Part shown: positions 2,038-9,919 of the stretch, piece by piece | Layout: every line of letters starts with the position of its first letter | Position numbering within the stretch: position 1 is the first letter of the stretch | IMG/VR virus record: IMGVR_UViG_2645727948_000026 | Location: 1-26,357 of that record | Reading direction: 5' to 3' (one strand) | From: a virus | Taxonomy: Duplodnaviria > Heunggongvirae > Uroviricota > Caudoviricetes | DNA: 26,357 nucleotides | Translations under genes and position numbers: made by a program | The notes under the pieces: generated by a model | Told to the model about the DNA's origin: nothing | Seen by the model: only the letters and a program-made list of their open reading frames with translations | Database searches by the model: none

Positions 2038-2346
2038 TTAGCCGGGCTGTGTGCCAGTCTTGCGGGGTTTTTGAGAAGGCGATGTGCTTTTTGGCCCATC
2101 AGGGGAGAGAGACGGACTGATCTGCCCAGCAGCCTCATTTGTTTTTCCCGTCATAAGCCAATTCATGTACTTAAAAAAGCGAGGGTGATTAACAATCTTG
2201 ATAAGCACTTCGCCCCCTATGTTTTCAATCCGCCCCGTTTCATAACGACGCAAAGTGCCGATAGGCACATCAATCAGGCCGCAAAATTCTTCGCGCGTTA
2301 AATCCTCTGATTCACGAATCACTCTAATTTTTTCACCGATAAGCAT
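2038..2346 (-). CDS. C: Immunity repressor, P2 C-like
   Basis: ORF track 2038..2382; start trimmed to M13 (MLIGEKIRVIRESEDLTREEF...). Helix-turn-helix region, sits directly upstream of int and divergent from the early operon, as in P2. Confidence 0.75.
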   Translation of the reverse strand: MLIGEKIRVIRESEDLTREEFCGLIDVPIGTLRRYETGRIENIGGEVLIKIVNHPRFFKYMNWLMTGKTNEAAGQISPSLSPDGPKSTSPSQKPRKTGTQPG

Positions 2347-2355
2347 TGACAGTGT

Positions 2356-2404
2356 TCCTATAAGTACACTAAGCTTGCGCACAAGGTGTACTTATAAGTA
2401 CACC
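2356..2404. promoter_or_regulatory. Putative repressor operator / early-lysogenic promoter switch
   Basis: Perfect 20-bp palindrome GGTGTACTTATAAGTACACC at 2385-2404, plus a half-site copy TATAAGTACAC at 2359-2369, between the divergent C and cox-like genes. TATAAG within the palindrome is -10-like. Confidence 0.6.
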
Positions 2405-4268: not shown

Positions 4269-4472
4269 ATGGCAATTAAGCATTTTCCCGTCGTTCGCTT
4301 TACCTCCAGAGGGCGCGAATACGAGGTCGACGAACGCCTGATTACCACTATCGACAAACATCGTTCGGAAAAGGATGCACACCACATCTACCTCACTGAC
4401 GGCACTTACTTCTGCGCCACCAACGTGGCGCGAGTAAATCTTATCCGACAGGTACAGGAGCCACGCAGATGA
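4269..4472 (+). CDS. Early-operon hypothetical protein (67 aa)
   Basis: ORF track; AAGGGGG RBS upstream. Confidence 0.5.
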   Translation: MAIKHFPVVRFTSRGREYEVDERLITTIDKHRSEKDAHHIYLTDGTYFCATNVARVNLIRQVQEPRR

Positions 4473-4735
4473 CCATTCTGGACTACATCGCTACTCATCC
4501 GGGGTGTAGCGGCGGAGAGATCGCCGCAGCACTGAATACCCCAACCACAGCCATTAATGCTGAGTTACGCCGACTTTGGCGCGGCGGCTTAGTCATCAGA
4601 ACAAACCGCAGCACAGGTGGTCGCGCTCGCAAAACAGGAGGCCAGGCTTCTTACCACGTAAACCCGATGCCGTTCGGGTGTAGCAATCCACTTACTCACA
4701 TGTTTAACCAGCTACTGAAGGAAGCCAGAGCATGA
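4469..4735 (+). CDS. Small putative DNA-binding protein (88 aa)
   Basis: ORF track; ATGA overlap with upstream ORF, CAGGAG RBS. Basic C-terminal region; winged-helix-like by eye only. Confidence 0.5.
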   Translation: MTILDYIATHPGCSGGEIAAALNTPTTAINAELRRLWRGGLVIRTNRSTGGRARKTGGQASYHVNPMPFGCSNPLTHMFNQLLKEARA

Positions 4736-5031
4736 GCACCATCAACCACCAGAAGCTACGCGAACTGGCATTTGCCCTGCAACGAATGGCAACGCCTCAA
4801 AAATTACTGGCATTTCGCGCAATGCTCTCGCCGTCTGCTGTGCTGGCACTGCTGAATGAGCTGGAGCACGCCAGAACCACGGCTCCTGCCATTCGCCTGA
4901 CGCTCCATCATGAAATCGCTGATTTCTGCGCGACGTTGGAGGCGCCGGGCGAACCGGAAACGCCGGAAGCAATACAGCAAGAGCTGCTGCAACGCATTGA
5001 CAAGGTTTTTGATTTTTTTCTGAACCAGTAA
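4732..5031 (+). CDS. Early-operon hypothetical protein (99 aa)
   Basis: ORF track; ATGA overlap with upstream ORF. Confidence 0.5.
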   Translation: MSTINHQKLRELAFALQRMATPQKLLAFRAMLSPSAVLALLNELEHARTTAPAIRLTLHHEIADFCATLEAPGEPETPEAIQQELLQRIDKVFDFFLNQ

Positions 5032-5153
5032 GAAACCAGAACATGCACACACAAAAAAACCGCTTGCCATGCCGCAATCAGTCAGGTTACATTTCCGCTG
5101 CACCTCATAAAACGGGTGCCGGGATTTCCACCCCGCTGACAACCAAAGCGCAC

Positions 5154-5174
5154 AACCGCGCCAGCGGTTTTTTT
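5154..5174 (+). terminator. Intrinsic-terminator-like hairpin inside the early operon
   Basis: AACCGC-GCCA-GCGGTT stem-loop followed by a T7 run (5168-5174). Confidence 0.4.
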
Positions 5175-5214
5175 GTGCGTACCGTATCGCCACGTCTTTT
5201 TCGCACACGAATTA

Positions 5215-5300
5215 TGGTGGGGCGTACAGGGCCGACTTCGGTCGGGCCGGGTTCTTTGGTTGCCGGTTGTGGAAACCCTGTACGTCTCACCACCCCGAGT
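5215..5300 (+). other. Structured untranslated element (possible regulatory RNA)
   Basis: 9-bp long-range stem CGTACAGGG (5223-5231) / CCCTGTACG (5276-5284) enclosing a CCGAC-UUCG-GUCGG tetraloop hairpin (5232-5245) and CCGG/CCGG pairing. The only ORF across it (track 5043..5660) has implausible composition. Confidence 0.35.
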
Positions 5301-5353
5301 TTTCCACCTCTGGATGGTGAGTTTTCAAAACTTACAACCAAAGAGGCCACCCC

Positions 5354-5584
5354 ATGGCAAACCGCAAACAACAGCGCGCATACGCTGCGCGTCGTCACAT
5401 CCAGACTGAAATCAACCGCAGACTTTACCGCGCATCACGCGTCGCTCGTATCATGTTCATCAACATGTCACATGAGCACAGCCACGTGCTGTCAAACGCC
5501 TACTCCGCCGCAGTATTTAGCTATCTGGCGGATGATCTGCGCGAGCTTCAGCAGCTCATCGAGCAGCAAAACAAACCCCATTAA
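5354..5584 (+). CDS. Early-operon hypothetical protein (76 aa)
   Basis: ORF track; AGAGG RBS 8 nt upstream of ATG. Confidence 0.5.
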   Translation: MANRKQQRAYAARRHIQTEINRRLYRASRVARIMFINMSHEHSHVLSNAYSAAVFSYLADDLRELQQLIEQQNKPH

Positions 5585-5656
5585 TTCCTGTTCCGGGCCT
5601 TTCCTGCACCTTGCGGCGGGAGGCCTTCGCACATCTGTAGTAAAGAGAATTGCAGC

Positions 5657-6046
5657 ATGATTGACGCTCATGACTTCACAAGATGGGTGCGCACACAGGA
5701 CACCCGTCTGGCTCCCGTTCTTCAGGGATTATTTGATCTCTACATCCGTGGTCGTGACAACAGAGCACGCACCACAAAACCGGAGAATGCAGACACCCTT
5801 TATTTCACAGTAGACGACTGCTACCGCGTGGACTTCACACCACACGGGCTGGCGTTGCACTGCCTGACACCACACGGAGAATCACTGCTGGCGTATTACG
5901 ACTCCCCGACCTCCGTATTTGCGGCAATGCTGGCGCATCGCACTGCTGGCGGGTGTGCCTCGCTGAGTGAATACACCGCTGAATTTAACCGCCTTTCTGC
6001 CCTCTTCTCGCAGGAGTGGCAGCGCGTGACGGGATACCAGCCATGA
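5657..6046 (+). CDS. Early-operon hypothetical protein (129 aa)
   Basis: ORF track; its stop overlaps the likely gpA start (ATGA). Confidence 0.55.
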   Translation: MIDAHDFTRWVRTQDTRLAPVLQGLFDLYIRGRDNRARTTKPENADTLYFTVDDCYRVDFTPHGLALHCLTPHGESLLAYYDSPTSVFAAMLAHRTAGGCASLSEYTAEFNRLSALFSQEWQRVTGYQP

Positions 6047-8883
6047 ATGAGTTTGCATGGAGCTGGAATGAACCACGGCCAGCCATTGATCCGGCCAGAT
6101 TTACGGAGCACAGGCAGGAAACTGAAACCGACCTGCAACGCGCCATCCGTTACTACCTTGAGGCAGACAAAAAGGCTCTGGAAGAACAGGAAGCGAAGGA
6201 GGAAGCCTTTTTCGCACAATCCACCGTGGGTAAAAAACTCATGGCATCCCTTGAGGAAGCCGGACAGCGTGAAAAGCTGGCACAAAGCATCATCAGCAAG
6301 CGTCAGGCAACAGAACAAGACCCGGTGGCCCGTGCTTTTGCCACACTGAAGGTGCTTCCCGTTTATCTGCGTAAACCTCTGAGCCGCCACCTCTCTTTCC
6401 TGCGCAAAAAACAGGAAGCCGATCGCCAGAAAGGCAAAAAGAGCTGGCAGGCTGAACGCTACGCGCGCGGAACCCTGCGCAAAATATTCGAACGCCTGGA
6501 CCGCACCGACCACCGCTGGCTGACACCGGGTTATCGCTCCCTTGCCGGACGCGAACGCCTGGATGATTTGCTTTACCTGCCGCAGCTCAACAAGCACCAG
6601 ATACAGACGCTGGCCACCATGACGGCGGCGATGTTCAGCAGCACCTTCGAAAAACTCTGCGATGGCTTTGGCGCGACCGATGGTGAGCTGACCATGGATG
6701 TAACGCTGAAGGCGTATCAGATGCTGGCCCGCATGGCGTTACACCTGCACGCCATGCCTCCACATTATGACGCACTGACAACAGACAAAGACCGGAGGAA
6801 CGAACCGGACACGGAGCTGCTGCCGGGCGCAACCCTTCGCCTGACCTGTGCGGAATGGTGGAAACGCAAACTGTGGCTGTTACGTTGCGAGTGGCGGGAA
6901 GAACAACTCCGCGCCGCCTGTCTGGTTTCCAGAAAAACATCACCCTATCTGAGCCAGGACGCGTTAAGCGAGTTTCGCGCACAGCGCGAGAAAACACGCG
7001 ATTTCCTGAAAAGTTTCATGCTGGAAAATGAAGACGGGTTCACGATTGATCTCGAGACGGTGTATTACGCGGGAGTAAGTAACCCGGTTCACCGTAAGGC
7101 AGAAATGATGGCCACCATGAAGGGGCTGGAACTTCTGGCCGAAGCCCGTGGCGACAGAGCGGTGTTTCTGACTGTCACCTGCCCGTCAAAATACCACGCA
7201 ACAACGGAGAACGGTCATCCGAATCCCAAATGGAACGGGGCCACAATGCGCGACTCCAGCGATTACCTGGTTAACACGTTTTTTGCGGCGGTCCGCAAAA
7301 AACTGAACCGCGACGGCCTGCGCTGGTATGGCATCCGCACGGTGGAGCCTCACCATGACGGCACTGTGCACTGGCATATGATGGTCTTTGCACATCCGGA
7401 CGAGATTGAAACCATCGTGTCCCACGTCTGCGATATTGCCATTCAGGAAGACCGCCACGAGCTGGGCGATGACATAACTCCGCGTTTTAAGGCGGAGTAC
7501 GTCGACGGCTCAAAAGGCACGCCAACCAGCTACATCGCCACCTACATCGGAAAGAACCTGGACAGCCGCGCCGTGGATGGCATCGACCCGAAAACGGGCA
7601 AGCCACGCGTTGACCACGAAACAGGTAAATCAATGGCCGAGAGCGTGGAGCGCGCCATCGGCTGGGCGCGCCTTCACCGGGTCCGTCAGTTCCAGTTCTT
7701 TGGCATCCCCTCCCGTCAGGTGTGGCGTGAACTGCGCCGCCTTGCCAGCCAGATGGCACGCAATCCGGAAGGCCCGCAACGGCTGAAGGATGACGCAATG
7801 GACGCGGTACTCGCTGCCGCTGATGCCGGATGTTTTGCCACCTACATTGAGAAACAGGGTGGCGTACTTGTTCCACGCAAAGACTACCTGATTCGCACCG
7901 CCTACGACCTCGCAGATGAGCTGAACGATTACGGTGAACAGAGCGTACAGATTTACGGGATCTGGTCGCCGCTCATTGGGGAGTCTTCCCGCGTATGCAC
8001 GCATCCGGATAACTGGAAGCTGGTAAGACGCAAACCGGAAGCGGAAGACAGCGCCCGCGAAAATGGTTTTGACCTTCAGGGCGGCCCTGCCGCCCCTTGG
8101 ACTCGTGGCAATAACTGTCCCCGTGTACAGGAAACAGGCAACAACGGGACAGAACAGCCGGAAGAACGGCCAGCACCGTGGCCGCAGCTTCCTGACGGCG
8201 TTGAAGTAAATGAATGGATGCGCTCACTGAAACGGCACGAACGCCGGGCGCTGATGCGTTCGCTTCGTGACAAACAGGCAAAAAACAGCAGCGATGAAAT
8301 GCAGAACTGGACACAGAGCCGCAAACAGCAGCGGCCTTTGCCTGATAACCACGAGTTACTCGCTAAAGAATGGCGGGAGTCTGCTGAATCTCTCGGCCTG
8401 CATATCGGTGAACAACAGATGCAGCACCTGTTACGGGGCGGCAGTCTGTACGTTGACGGCAGCATCATTGCACCGCAGGGATTTGAAATTGTACGCAAAC
8501 CGGATACCCGCCCGGACAGCCGAATCACGCAGCTCTGGCAGCGTCTGAGCCGTAATCATGGCGTAAGCAGCACGGAGATCCGCCATAACCCGGTCGCCAG
8601 CTATCTGGCACAGCTGGGGGCATCAGACCCTGAAGCCGCCGCACGCCTGGCATCCACACTTCAGCAGGACCAGAACACCATGAAAACACCCGTTACCGTG
8701 CTTTCTGACATGCTGCGCGCCATCCGCGACGCAGAGCACGCACAGAGAATCAGTGAAACCACTGAACGCGCCAGCCGCAAAGCAGACCTGCTGCGGGGTG
8801 GCCTGACCAGTGGAAACAAAAAACAGACAGAAACGGGACTCACGAATCCCGTAAATGAGCAAAAAACGCGCAGCGATATATGA
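6043..8883 (+). CDS. A: Rolling-circle replication initiator endonuclease, P2 gpA-like (about 946 aa)
   Basis: ORF track 6016..8883. HUH motif (TVHWHMMVF) and paired catalytic tyrosines (SYIATYIGKN). Start at ATG 6043 preferred because it couples to the upstream stop; 6016 is also possible. C-terminus is longer than P2 gpA as I recall it (761 aa). Confidence 0.85.
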   Translation: MNEFAWSWNEPRPAIDPARFTEHRQETETDLQRAIRYYLEADKKALEEQEAKEEAFFAQSTVGKKLMASLEEAGQREKLAQSIISKRQATEQDPVARAFATLKVLPVYLRKPLSRHLSFLRKKQEADRQKGKKSWQAERYARGTLRKIFERLDRTDHRWLTPGYRSLAGRERLDDLLYLPQLNKHQIQTLATMTAAMFSSTFEKLCDGFGATDGELTMDVTLKAYQMLARMALHLHAMPPHYDALTTDKDRRNEPDTELLPGATLRLTCAEWWKRKLWLLRCEWREEQLRAACLVSRKTSPYLSQDALSEFRAQREKTRDFLKSFMLENEDGFTIDLETVYYAGVSNPVHRKAEMMATMKGLELLAEARGDRAVFLTVTCPSKYHATTENGHPNPKWNGATMRDSSDYLVNTFFAAVRKKLNRDGLRWYGIRTVEPHHDGTVHWHMMVFAHPDEIETIVSHVCDIAIQEDRHELGDDITPRFKAEYVDGSKGTPTSYIATYIGKNLDSRAVDGIDPKTGKPRVDHETGKSMAESVERAIGWARLHRVRQFQFFGIPSRQVWRELRRLASQMARNPEGPQRLKDDAMDAVLAAADAGCFATYIEKQGGVLVPRKDYLIRTAYDLADELNDYGEQSVQIYGIWSPLIGESSRVCTHPDNWKLVRRKPEAEDSARENGFDLQGGPAAPWTRGNNCPRVQETGNNGTEQPEERPAPWPQLPDGVEVNEWMRSLKRHERRALMRSLRDKQAKNSSDEMQNWTQSRKQQRPLPDNHELLAKEWRESAESLGLHIGEQQMQHLLRGGSLYVDGSIIAPQGFEIVRKPDTRPDSRITQLWQRLSRNHGVSSTEIRHNPVASYLAQLGASDPEAAARLASTLQQDQNTMKTPVTVLSDMLRAIRDAEHAQRISETTERASRKADLLRGGLTSGNKKQTETGLTNPVNEQKTRSDI

Positions 8884-8931
8884 GGCGCGCACAAAACAGG
8901 CAAAAACGGGATTTCAGAATCCCGTAAACGA
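8824..8931. repeat. Two copies of a palindrome-containing direct repeat
   Basis: AAACGGGACTCACGAATCCCGTAAA (8831-8855) and AAACGGGATTTCAGAATCCCGTAAA (8904-8928), with conserved flanks, 73 bp apart. Copy 1 is inside the last gpA codons, copy 2 is intergenic just upstream of the parM-like gene. Confidence 0.6.
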
Positions 8932-8959
8932 TTAATTAATCAACATAAGGAAAACCGAC

Positions 8960-9919
8960 ATGAAAATTTACATCGACGACGGCTCCACCAACATCAAGCT
9001 GGCATGGACTGAGAACGGCGAACGCCGCAACGCCATCAGCCCGAACAGCTTCAAGTCGGAATGGTCTGCGCCGTTCGGTGGCTCGCAGCCTGCTAACTAC
9101 ATGCTTGATGGCGTGCGCTATGGTTTTGATCCGGTCAGCGATCGCTTTGTCCAGACGACCGACACGCAATACCAGTACAGCGATGTGAATGTCATTGCCA
9201 TTCATCACGCGCTGGTCAAATCAGACATCACGCCACAGGAAGTGGATGTGGTTGTTACCCTGCCACTGAGCGAATATTTCGACACAAACGCACAGCCGGA
9301 CATGGCCAACATCAACCGCAAAAAAGCGAACGTCATGCGCCCGGTGGAGTACCAGAACGGCGAAGCATTCACTATCCGTAACGTACGGGTTATGCCTGAA
9401 TCCATTCCGGCTGGCTTTAAAGCACTGGCTGACATGAGTCCGTTTGAATCCCTGCTGATTGTGGATTTGGGCGGAACCACGCTGGATGTGGCAAAGGTTC
9501 AGGGGCAACTGGCAGGTATCAGCCAGGTGTTTTGCGATCCACACGTAGGCGTTTCTCTTATGGCCGATGCCGTACTGTCGGTGATGGCCACTAACGGTAT
9601 GCGCACCAGTCACCACATCGCCAATACCATTATCGAACATCGCCATAATGAAGCCTGGCTGCGCCAGCACATCCACAATGACGCGCATTACGCCAGCCTG
9701 ATGGCGGTTATTCGTGAAAAGGAAGAAACACTGAAACAACGCGTGATCCGCGCGCTGGCGGTTTTTTCGGGTTACGGGCGGGTGATGGTTGTCGGTGGCG
9801 GGGCGGAGATTGTGGCACCCGCTATCCGCGAAGCCTGCGGAGTTAATGCGACTTTCATCGCGGACGGGGTGCCACAGTTTGCTCTGGTTAATGGGCTGTA
9901 CGCAATGGACAAGGAGTAA
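8960..9919 (+). CDS. parM: Actin-like ATPase, ParM/StbA family
   Basis: ORF track. N-terminus MKIYIDDGSTNIKLAW and blocks VMPESIPAG, LLIVDLGGTTLDV, VMVVGGGAE match my recollection of plasmid R1 ParM and the actin-fold phosphate/adenosine motifs. Confidence 0.7.
   Translation: MKIYIDDGSTNIKLAWTENGERRNAISPNSFKSEWSAPFGGSQPANYMLDGVRYGFDPVSDRFVQTTDTQYQYSDVNVIAIHHALVKSDITPQEVDVVVTLPLSEYFDTNAQPDMANINRKKANVMRPVEYQNGEAFTIRNVRVMPESIPAGFKALADMSPFESLLIVDLGGTTLDVAKVQGQLAGISQVFCDPHVGVSLMADAVLSVMATNGMRTSHHIANTIIEHRHNEAWLRQHIHNDAHYASLMAVIREKEETLKQRVIRALAVFSGYGRVMVVGGGAEIVAPAIREACGVNATFIADGVPQFALVNGLYAMDKE

Follow-up and report, generated by a model that had tools for sequence, protein, structure and literature searches.

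The window analysed here, a stretch of 26,357 nucleotides from a virus of the class Caudoviricetes, is a P2-like prophage that carries an integrase, an HTH repressor, early genes, a gpA-type replication gene, ParM and then portal, terminase and capsid genes. Its early genes are interrupted by a gap bounded by a 99-aa ORF (4732-5031) and a 76-aa ORF (5354-5584). A first reading, made from the sequence alone, had proposed a single structured, untranslated segment acting as a regulatory or small RNA, or as a terminator/antiterminator switch, for the downstream replication genes. Our results indicate that it is very likely a P4-type RNA immunity (anti-derepression) cassette lying in the early operon of a P88-like (Xuanwuvirus, P2-like) prophage, a module already known from P4, P1/P7, N15 and Gifsy-1.

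The locus is widespread. A prophage of Escherichia coli O157:H7 FRIK944 is 99.9% identical to the 1.7-kb region 4400-6100, and phage P88 (Xuanwuvirus, Peduoviridae) is ~95-97% identical over the gap segment. Among 5426 complete genomes, 1463 matched the 1.7-kb region, and in 254 of them at least 80% of it was covered.

Two RNA families in the gap

An Rfam scan of the whole 26-kb window at curated thresholds gave two matches in total, isrK and C4, both in this gap and on the + strand and both above their gathering scores (Table 1), so that the Rfam/Infernal check suggested by the sequence-only reading came out in its favour. The isrK match covers model positions 1-77 of 77 and the C4 match positions 1-87 of 87, with 35 nt between the IsrK 3' end and the C4 start. 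We take + to be the transcribed strand because both matches lie on it and because the conserved G-U pairs fit this strand and could not pair on the opposite one; on the minus strand Rfam gave sub-threshold matches only (IMPDH, 17.7 bits vs 95.4). Three further ORFs were considered and rejected: a 97-aa minus-strand ORF (5105-5398) and a 62-aa minus-strand CDS annotated in P88, both without family support, and a 78-aa TTG ORF on the + strand (5173-5409) whose frame has stops in relatives.

Table 1. Features of the cassette and of the genes that follow it (window coordinates).
Feature	Position	Strand	Remarks
Through-ORF, 205 codons, Pfam Phage_ASH (PF10554)	5043-5660	+	P4 eta counterpart by position and frame
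Promoter-like TTGCCA-N18-TACATT	5064-5093	+	predicted by consensus scan; start placed near 5100; P4 PLE counterpart
IsrK / P4 seqA-like small RNA	5100-5174	+	Rfam RF01394, 64.3 bits vs gathering score 50
IsrK hairpin 1	5100-5119	+	all 6 pairs with compensatory changes
IsrK hairpin 2	5120-5135	+	followed by linker
Box b1, UUUCCAC	5125-5131	+	loop of IsrK hairpin 2; complement of b'
Box a1, CAACCAAAG	5140-5148	+	IsrK linker; complement of a' loop
IsrK intrinsic terminator	5154-5174	+	hairpin and T7 run
C4 / P4 CI-like antisense RNA	5210-5297	+	Rfam RF01695, 82 bits vs gathering score 45
C4 closing stem, 17 bp	5215-5231 with 5276-5292	+	
C4 UUCG hairpin	5232-5245	+	
C4 hairpin 2, GCCGG/CCGGU	5246-5267	+	carries a'
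a', CUUUGGUUG	5254-5262	+	loop of C4 hairpin 2
b', GUGGAAA	5269-5275	+	C4 junction
Alternative hairpin	5286-5321	+	MFE fold of read-through transcript
Box b2, UUUCCAC	5301-5307	+	leader; complement of b'
Box a2, CAACCAAAGA	5335-5344	+	leader; overlaps Shine-Dalgarno AAGAGG 5341-5346
76-aa P4 epsilon (helper derepression protein) homolog	5354-5584	+	first gene with its own Shine-Dalgarno after the cassette
129-aa ORF, phrog_3237	5657-6046	+	function not assigned; start overlaps through-ORF stop, stop overlaps annotated gene A start
P2 gpA-type replication endonuclease	6016-8883	+	Pfam Phage_GPA 430 bits; RefSeq 'replication endonuclease'

The upstream RNA is a member of the isrK family by its score and by its layout of two 5' hairpins, a linker and an intrinsic terminator, and its fold is more stable than expected (z = -2.43). 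The terminator-like hairpin with a run of seven T that had been noticed earlier is therefore real and forms the 3' end of IsrK; the unit had been placed from 5150 onwards, and its first RNA instead begins at 5100, behind the promoter-like site. That site agrees with the consensus at 9/12 positions and ends 6 nt before 5100. The consensus scan returned 4 sites against 4.0 in shuffled sequences, that is, no excess. The 15 phage loci that we fetched include N15, ST64B, cdtI, two P2-like phages, several Stx phages, and phages of Yersinia and Klebsiella; all 15 have a -35/-10 pair at an equal distance upstream of isrK, and P4 has TTGCCT-N17-TATAGT at the equivalent position. By analogy with other members of the isrK family, Hfq binding and a discrete species of ~75 nt would be expected.

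The nested fold of the first reading is also present and corresponds to C4, with its UUCG hairpin and its GCCGG/CCGGU hairpin; the enclosing long-range stem, given there as 9 bp, is 17 bp long. Structure prediction for 5210-5297 gave an MFE of -46.4 kcal/mol (z = -3.93), with 0/200 shuffles folding as well, and the stretch 5100-5360 folded as a whole has z = -4.12. The model score, a stem enclosing two hairpins and the complementarity of a' and b' to neighbouring boxes identify this RNA as a C4. Its release from a longer transcript by RNase P and its action in trans as an immunity factor are family traits that we assume for it by analogy.

Covariation agreed with these structures. In an alignment of 64 sequences, 94.6% of the cells of the intramolecular helices were paired, compared with 82.6% in shuffles and 36-45% when partners were slid, and 22 pairs had changed on both sides. 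The C4 closing stem was 97.8% paired, with 9 pairs changed on both sides, and C4 hairpin 1 was 98.4% paired, with such changes in 5/5 pairs. What had been seen as a single structure is two RNAs; the duplicated antisense logic described below, the correspondence to a known module and the ORF that runs through the region had been missed as well.

Box complementarity and its coordinated change

Each of the two unpaired elements of C4, a' and b', has two complements in the window, one inside IsrK and one in the leader of the 76-aa ORF, with exact matches of 9-10 nt (a) and 7 nt (b). The 9-mer CAACCAAAG occurs 3 times in the window (5140 and 5335 on the + strand, 5254 on the minus strand), against 0.41 expected. 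The ribosome binding site that the sequence-only reading had recognised for the next gene is present, AAGAGG lying 10 nt before ATG 5354, and in relatives a2 always stands directly against GAGG.

In all 15 phage loci isrK is followed by C4 in tandem, 22-35 nt apart. A pattern scan of viral contigs enlarged the set to 109 unique loci, which contain 48 distinct a' loops and 24 distinct b' junctions, combined into 63 a'/b' types. An alignment-free comparison over these 63 types gave a mean exact complement to the locus's own boxes of 7.3 nt for a1, 8.1 for a2, 6.9 for b1 and 6.9 for b2, and of ~4.5 nt to those of other loci. Complements of at least 7 nt were found in 68% (a1), 76% (a2), 89% (b1) and 94% (b2) of own pairings but in only 2-5% of cross pairings. 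Predicted duplex energies followed the same trend, with -34.8 and -32.1 kcal/mol for own targets vs -20.4 and -22.1 for others (sd 4.4).

The alignment of 64 sequences allowed the intermolecular pairing of IsrK with C4 to be assessed directly: 89.5% of the cells were paired, compared with 58.6% in shuffles and 31-50% in slid controls, and the covariation score of 0.736 (vs 0.195) was matched by 0/500 shuffles. The corresponding MAFFT-based count for C4 with the leader was weak (59.6% paired, one slid control having a higher covariation score) because the leader spacing is variable; the C4-leader interaction therefore rests on the alignment-free complement test.

Close relatives illustrate how these changes occur. 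P88 differs from the window at 10 of 307 nt, and 6 of these differences make up two triple changes coordinated between a1, a' and a2; the window-type cassette has CAACCAAAG where the P88-type has CAACTACAG, with two differing a' positions. In phage 569R5, 18 of the 38 differences from the window fall within the 48 box nucleotides, all as coordinated triples, and a U-A to C-G swap is found in the C4 closing stem as well. The boxes b1, b' and b2 change in step, and so do a1, a' and a2, as would be expected if base pairing is what is maintained while the specificity of the system diversifies.

Relatives of the cassette and how it may act

The order of parts in the window is promoter-like site, IsrK, C4, a2/b2, epsilon-like gene, 129-aa ORF and gpA. 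The 76-aa product matches the Pfam family Derepression (PF25738) with 33.1 bits vs a cut-off of 27, where P4 epsilon itself scores 170 bits, and BLASTP aligns the two with 35% identity over 51 aa (E = 5e-8); the depositors of P88 had already named its counterpart 'derepression protein'. The longest ORF of the gpA gene starts at GTG 6016, the RefSeq-annotated start being window position 6043, and this gene is likely the last one under control of the cassette. A conserved hairpin without a U tract lies at 5595-5626; by eye it is not conserved in P88-type sequences, and we make no claim that it sequesters the start codon of the 129-aa ORF.

P4 has the corresponding parts in matching order and strand (promoter, seqA/IsrK, CI/C4, seqC, epsilon, replication), its full order being PLE, seqA, CI, seqC, kil/eta, epsilon, orf151 and then alpha. 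The isrK family matches its seqA region and the C4 family its CI, also as a tandem; a/b boxes lie upstream and at the downstream RBS, an alternative hairpin is present, and matches to Phage_ASH and PF25738 follow in equal order. The window shares with P4 an epsilon-family gene placed after the RNA cassette and before the replication gene. The two elements differ in that the window is a complete P2-like phage with gpA whereas P4 is a satellite with an alpha primase, in the spacer between IsrK and C4 (35 nt vs 107 nt), and in the first gene after a2, which is the epsilon homolog in the window and kil in P4.

Other relatives share part of this design. In the immI operon of P1/P7 (c4-icd-ant), C4 pairs through a' and b' with upstream a1/b1 and with a2/b2 at the next RBS, and C4 reportedly represses translation there with polarity on the antirepressor. 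P1 differs in being a stand-alone operon that controls Ant, and the upstream element of the window scores as isrK, with its own terminator, and not as c4-a1b1; Rfam clan CL00128 joins C4 (RF01695) with its a1b1 target c4-a1b1 (RF03163). The anti-immunity locus of N15 (CB RNA, antA/B/C) shares the isrK-C4 tandem (L010) and matching a/b boxes, but it belongs to a lambdoid/linear-plasmid prophage and its C4-AUG frame is closed upstream of C4. The system is treated by Barquist et al., both RNAs are already annotated in one GenBank phage record (F039), and our literature search found no paper on the cassette in P2-like phages.

The genetics of P4 and P1 make the C4-type RNA the immunity factor, and in P4 seqA is counted as part of immunity, unlike the activating IsrK of Gifsy-1. 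RNase P, the Rho/timm site (a Rho-dependent terminator used when translation is blocked) and kil/eta belong to the known biology of P4, and we compared them here at the level of the P4 sequence. On the pattern of this family, an internal promoter would make IsrK in the lysogen, read-through past the IsrK terminator would yield a precursor, and RNase P would free C4 from it. C4 would then pair with a2/b2 and stop translation of the epsilon-like gene at 5354. Because the untranslated RNA would be open to Rho-dependent termination, the epsilon-like protein, the 129-aa protein and gpA would not be made from stray or superinfecting transcripts of matching a/b type. IsrK carries identical boxes and would therefore compete for C4, in cis or in trans, or it may open the long transcript as in Gifsy-1. 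In the lytic cycle the through-ORF would be translated by ribosomes that arrive along the early operon or initiate at AUG 5214; this would melt the IsrK terminator and the C4 fold and couple translation to the 129-aa gene and gene A, like P4 eta. The epsilon-like protein would in turn act against a C repressor of the P2 type, which may be that of this prophage (2038-2382, minus strand) or one encoded by a related prophage, and inactivate it. The suggestion that a regulatory or small RNA controls the replication genes was right in kind, in that isrK and C4 were found with target boxes at the RBS.

Gifsy-1 (isrK-orf45-anrP-isrJ), whose version of the system was dissected by Hershko-Shalev et al. 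2016, offers a different emphasis. It resembles the window in an IsrK sRNA that ends at a leaky terminator and is made from a separate promoter (in the window, a predicted one), in a downstream processed RNA, STnc1160, complementary to IsrK, and in an ORF that starts at the C4 5'-arm AUG and whose translation is coupled to the next gene; it differs in its downstream gene, a Rha/Ant-type antirepressor, and in a leader ORF of 45 codons vs 205 in the window (PMC4825925). There IsrK is called a structural homolog of seqA, and short IsrK acts in trans to switch on the read-through mRNA, raising anrP translation >100-fold; this requires the AUG at +107, while a stop codon in orf45 lowers anrP translation (PMC4825925). 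In two of our loci (L006 and L009), counted from the start of isrK, in-frame ATGs stand at +106 and +118, in agreement with the positions +107 and +119 given for Gifsy-1 (PMC4825925), which places the Gifsy-1 +107 AUG in the C4 5' arm. IsrK could thus be mainly an activator that opens the read-through mRNA so that the ORF from AUG 5214 couples to the downstream genes, with C4 serving a largely structural role, and the fact that the AUG 5214 frame is kept open and ends on the next start codon fits such a view. It leaves unexplained, however, why a2 lies on the Shine-Dalgarno sequence of the epsilon-like gene, which is distinct, out of frame and served by an RBS of its own, and it runs against the P4 and P1 genetics described above, so that we regard it as unlikely, if still a serious contender, as an account of the whole. 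It is compatible with the immunity cassette, which includes this role for IsrK.

A purely cis-acting attenuator, in which the T7 terminator and mutually exclusive folds gate read-through with no antisense RNA acting in trans, would fit the intrinsic terminator of IsrK and the folding of the read-through transcript. In the MFE fold of that transcript, the C4 stem 3' arm CUCACCA (5286-5292) pairs with the downstream UGGUGAG (5315-5321) to form an alternative hairpin with b2 in its loop, and b1/a1 of IsrK also pairs in cis with a'/b' of C4. The hairpin is conserved: among the 7 pairs of its outer helix, 5 (columns 269-273) are paired in ~94-98% of the 64 sequences, the figures for the remaining two being 97% and 75%, with compensatory changes such as UA to CG in 14 sequences, and P4 has a covarying equivalent, GCUAUCGCC with GGCGAUAGC, at the corresponding position. 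Against this account, a second copy of the a/b boxes stands at the RBS and co-varies too, which a cis fold of IsrK with C4 alone would not need, and the characterised members of the family (P1 C4, P4 CI and N15 CB) act in trans. Short IsrK likewise acts in trans in Gifsy-1, where the long transcript adopts two alternative conformers, 'structure A/B', that match the alternative fold of the window (PMC4825925). We consider attenuation alone improbable; folding in cis probably contributes one layer of the control and is compatible with trans action. Of the proposed terminator/antiterminator switch, this much stands, that the T7 hairpin must be read through for C4 to be made and that the C4 3' arm can re-pair downstream.

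The open frame through the RNAs

The sequence-only reading had seen no credible coding frame in the gap. The ORF 5043-5660 nevertheless crosses it and scores 32.7 bits against Phage_ASH (cut-off 26), over aa 16-110, which correspond exactly to isrK, C4 and the leader; it also matches PHROG 'transcriptional regulator' families, and RefSeq/PGAP labels it an 'ash family protein' pseudogene, and therefore the two regulatory RNAs and their targets go unannotated. Its in-frame AUG 5214 sits in the 5' arm of the C4 stem, 148 codons from the end, and neither this AUG nor ATG 5043 has a good Shine-Dalgarno sequence. The ORF overlaps the epsilon-like gene out of frame, and its stop lies in an ATGA overlap with ATG 5657.

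Of 95 loci examined from the C4 AUG to the downstream ATG, 73 have no stop in the through-frame, while the other two frames are stop-free in 28 and 15. In the remaining 22 loci there are 1-4 stops in the through-frame, and in 30 of the 95 the downstream ATG is out of frame; these loci still have the C4 pattern, and the a/b complementarity holds across the data set. What is conserved is therefore not the protein. Within the epsilon frame the variable sites show a third-position excess (22/20/36), and its amino-acid identity is higher than that of the overlapping through-frame. Taken together, the stops, the variation that follows RNA pairing and the lower identity suggest that Phage_ASH is not conserved as a protein.

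Members of the P2-like subgroup have their downstream gene in the +2 frame relative to the through-frame. Across the epsilon-like gene of 75-77 codons, the through-frame has no stop in 9/9 P2-like loci and the third frame has 1-5, where synonymous recoding expects 2.1-3.8 stops in the through-frame (P of zero, 0.003-0.064 per locus). The ATGA overlap with the next gene ends the through-frame in 8/9 of these loci and is kept even though spacers vary (61, 70, 76 and 82 nt) and though the next gene may be an ORF of 121, 129 or 137 aa or gene A itself (L034, L046). L058 is the relative without the ATGA ending; in L124, also P2-like, a stop stands immediately ahead of the C4 AUG.

In P4 the frame that holds the CI 5'-arm AUG is open from 8821 to 8168 and, as in the window, runs through the promoter, both RNAs and the leader. 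P4 has nested eta (197-199 aa) and kil (65 aa) genes. This frame contains two starts that fit them: ATGATGATG for eta, overlapping the upstream gene at its stop (8764-8766), and for kil an in-frame ATG at 8365, immediately behind a2. The window has its own counterpart of eta, an ORF that begins upstream of the promoter-like site and crosses both RNAs in the frame of the CI-arm AUG. The nesting differs, the epsilon-like gene lying out of frame within the through-ORF and kil lying in frame within eta, and on these sequences the out-of-frame overlap coupled to gene A appears to be a variation on the P4 arrangement.

That the region is merely a protein-coding 'Ash' gene or its decayed remnant, with incidental matches to RNA families, is highly improbable: the Phage_ASH, PHROG and PGAP assignments and the prevalence of the open frame speak for a gene, but the Pfam match sits exactly on the RNA features, the old 'cI' ORF of P4 matches the same family and its product is an RNA, the RNA pattern is kept in loci with stops or an out-of-frame ATG, the compensatory and three-box coordinated substitutions are not predicted by protein constraint, and the amino acids of this frame are less conserved than those of the epsilon frame. 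We also dropped the opposite view, that Ash is wholly spurious, because a frame that stays open and stops at the following start codon is seen far more often than expected by chance and because the P4 frame is likewise open. By analogy with P4 eta and Gifsy-1 orf45, we take the through-ORF to be a conduit for ribosomes, translated but with no selection on what it encodes; its translation probably matters and its product probably does not.

For the P88-like phages we advance, as a possibility that falls short of probable, that a P4-style cassette has been remodelled to fit two reading frames onto a single stretch of RNA, a C4-masked epsilon RBS being combined with a non-conserved conduit of ~150-200 codons that begins within or ahead of the C4 gene, overlaps epsilon out of frame and brings ribosomes to gene A. 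If this is true, each transcript would be either processed to immunity RNA or translated into replication functions, and a P2-like phage would gain a second, RNA-based and type-specific layer of immunity. The module could then be an evolutionary source of the immunity/derepression region of P4 satellites, or a counter-measure to it.

The prophage is common in E. coli, and the cassette has been hidden under a pseudogene label. Once recognised, it predicts a type-specific RNA immunity that would gate an anti-repressor homolog and a P2-like replication gene, with a bearing on prophage induction, heteroimmunity and the conflict between helper and satellite. On the evidence of this data set, Phage_ASH and several PHROG 'transcriptional regulator' families are largely conceptual translations of RNA genes. 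The region may be among the clearer natural cases in which one sequence serves as RNA gene, RNA target and translated conduit, which would give it value both for annotation and for the biology of helpers and their satellites.

A conserved hairpin downstream of the epsilon-like gene

Folding of the spacer between the epsilon-like gene (76 aa, PF25738) and the 129-aa gene of the E. coli prophage revealed an imperfect, G+C-rich hairpin of 14 pairs (−20 kcal/mol, z = −2.2). This element is almost unchanged between P2-like loci that differ by 17–35% in their epsilon-like ORFs. The hairpin lacks a U tract; it may serve in processing, in pausing or as a Rho-related site, in the manner of the P4 Rho-dependent terminator timm.

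Coordinates of the hairpin, tandem cassettes and through-ORFs
Feature	Locus	Position (nt)	Basis
Imperfect 14-pair G+C-rich hairpin, in spacer 5585-5660	window	5595-5626	folding
Tandem IsrK-C4 cassettes	L096	7740-8581
Tandem IsrK-C4 cassettes	L052	9709-11209
Tandem IsrK-C4 cassettes	L036		
Tandem IsrK-C4 cassettes	L037		
Tandem IsrK-C4 cassettes	L115		
Through-ORF continuing into antirepressor	L008	1141-2292	
Through-ORF continuing into antirepressor	L011	1147-2304	
Through-ORF continuing into antirepressor	L013	1141-2289	

Family labels and the through-ORF

The Pfam family Phage_ASH (PF10554) matches the P4 'cI'/eta ORF (L017 8168-8584), that is, the translated RNA cassette, while P4 epsilon (L017 7888-8175) gave no match to Phage_ASH and matched PF25738 instead. 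A survey of P4-like satellites took PF10554 as the epsilon profile and equated Ash with epsilon (PMC8628076). The Ash-type N-terminal extension is also taken in by PHROG families 995, 821 and 6928, which are labelled as transcriptional regulators.

In several lambdoid phages the through-ORF, which crosses both RNA genes, begins where the early ORF ahead of it ends, or shortly past that point; the stop and start overlap by 4 nt in L008, where the preceding ORF is cII, and in L013, and in L011 the start lies within sb40. In these phages the through-ORF covers ~360 nt ahead of the internal promoter and later reads on, still in frame, into a Rha-type antirepressor, giving the annotated 383–385-aa 'antirepressor' proteins with the Ash domain in mid-protein.

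Additional cassettes and neighbouring genes

Some viral contigs carry two or three complete IsrK-C4 cassettes in tandem, spaced ~653–656 nt apart, and the a'/b' boxes, the target-pairing segments of C4, differ between cassettes of one array. Such arrays may hold several immunity specificities. In L096 each cassette is crossed by a separate through-ORF (7665-8345 and 8327-9190); the two overlap each other by 19 nt, and at their outer ends each shares 4 nt with the adjacent ORF in an end-to-start overlap (7665-7668 and 9187-9190). The P2-like contig L046 has a second C4-family match (221-308, 75.4 bits) ~7.6 kb upstream of its main cassette, with no above-threshold isrK match adjoining. In Shigella phage Ss-VASD (L006) a second RNA (2524-2607) scores as sRNA-Xcc1 (RF02221, 79.6 bits); it lies ~840 nt downstream of the cassette and immediately 5' of an annotated anti-repressor gene.

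Directly downstream of the replication gene A, the window encodes a ParM/StbA actin-like segregation protein (8960-9919; 270 and 229 bits); in the near-identical FRIK944 prophage, RefSeq annotates the next gene as a partition/stability protein. These genes hint that this P2-like prophage has a plasmid-like maintenance stage.
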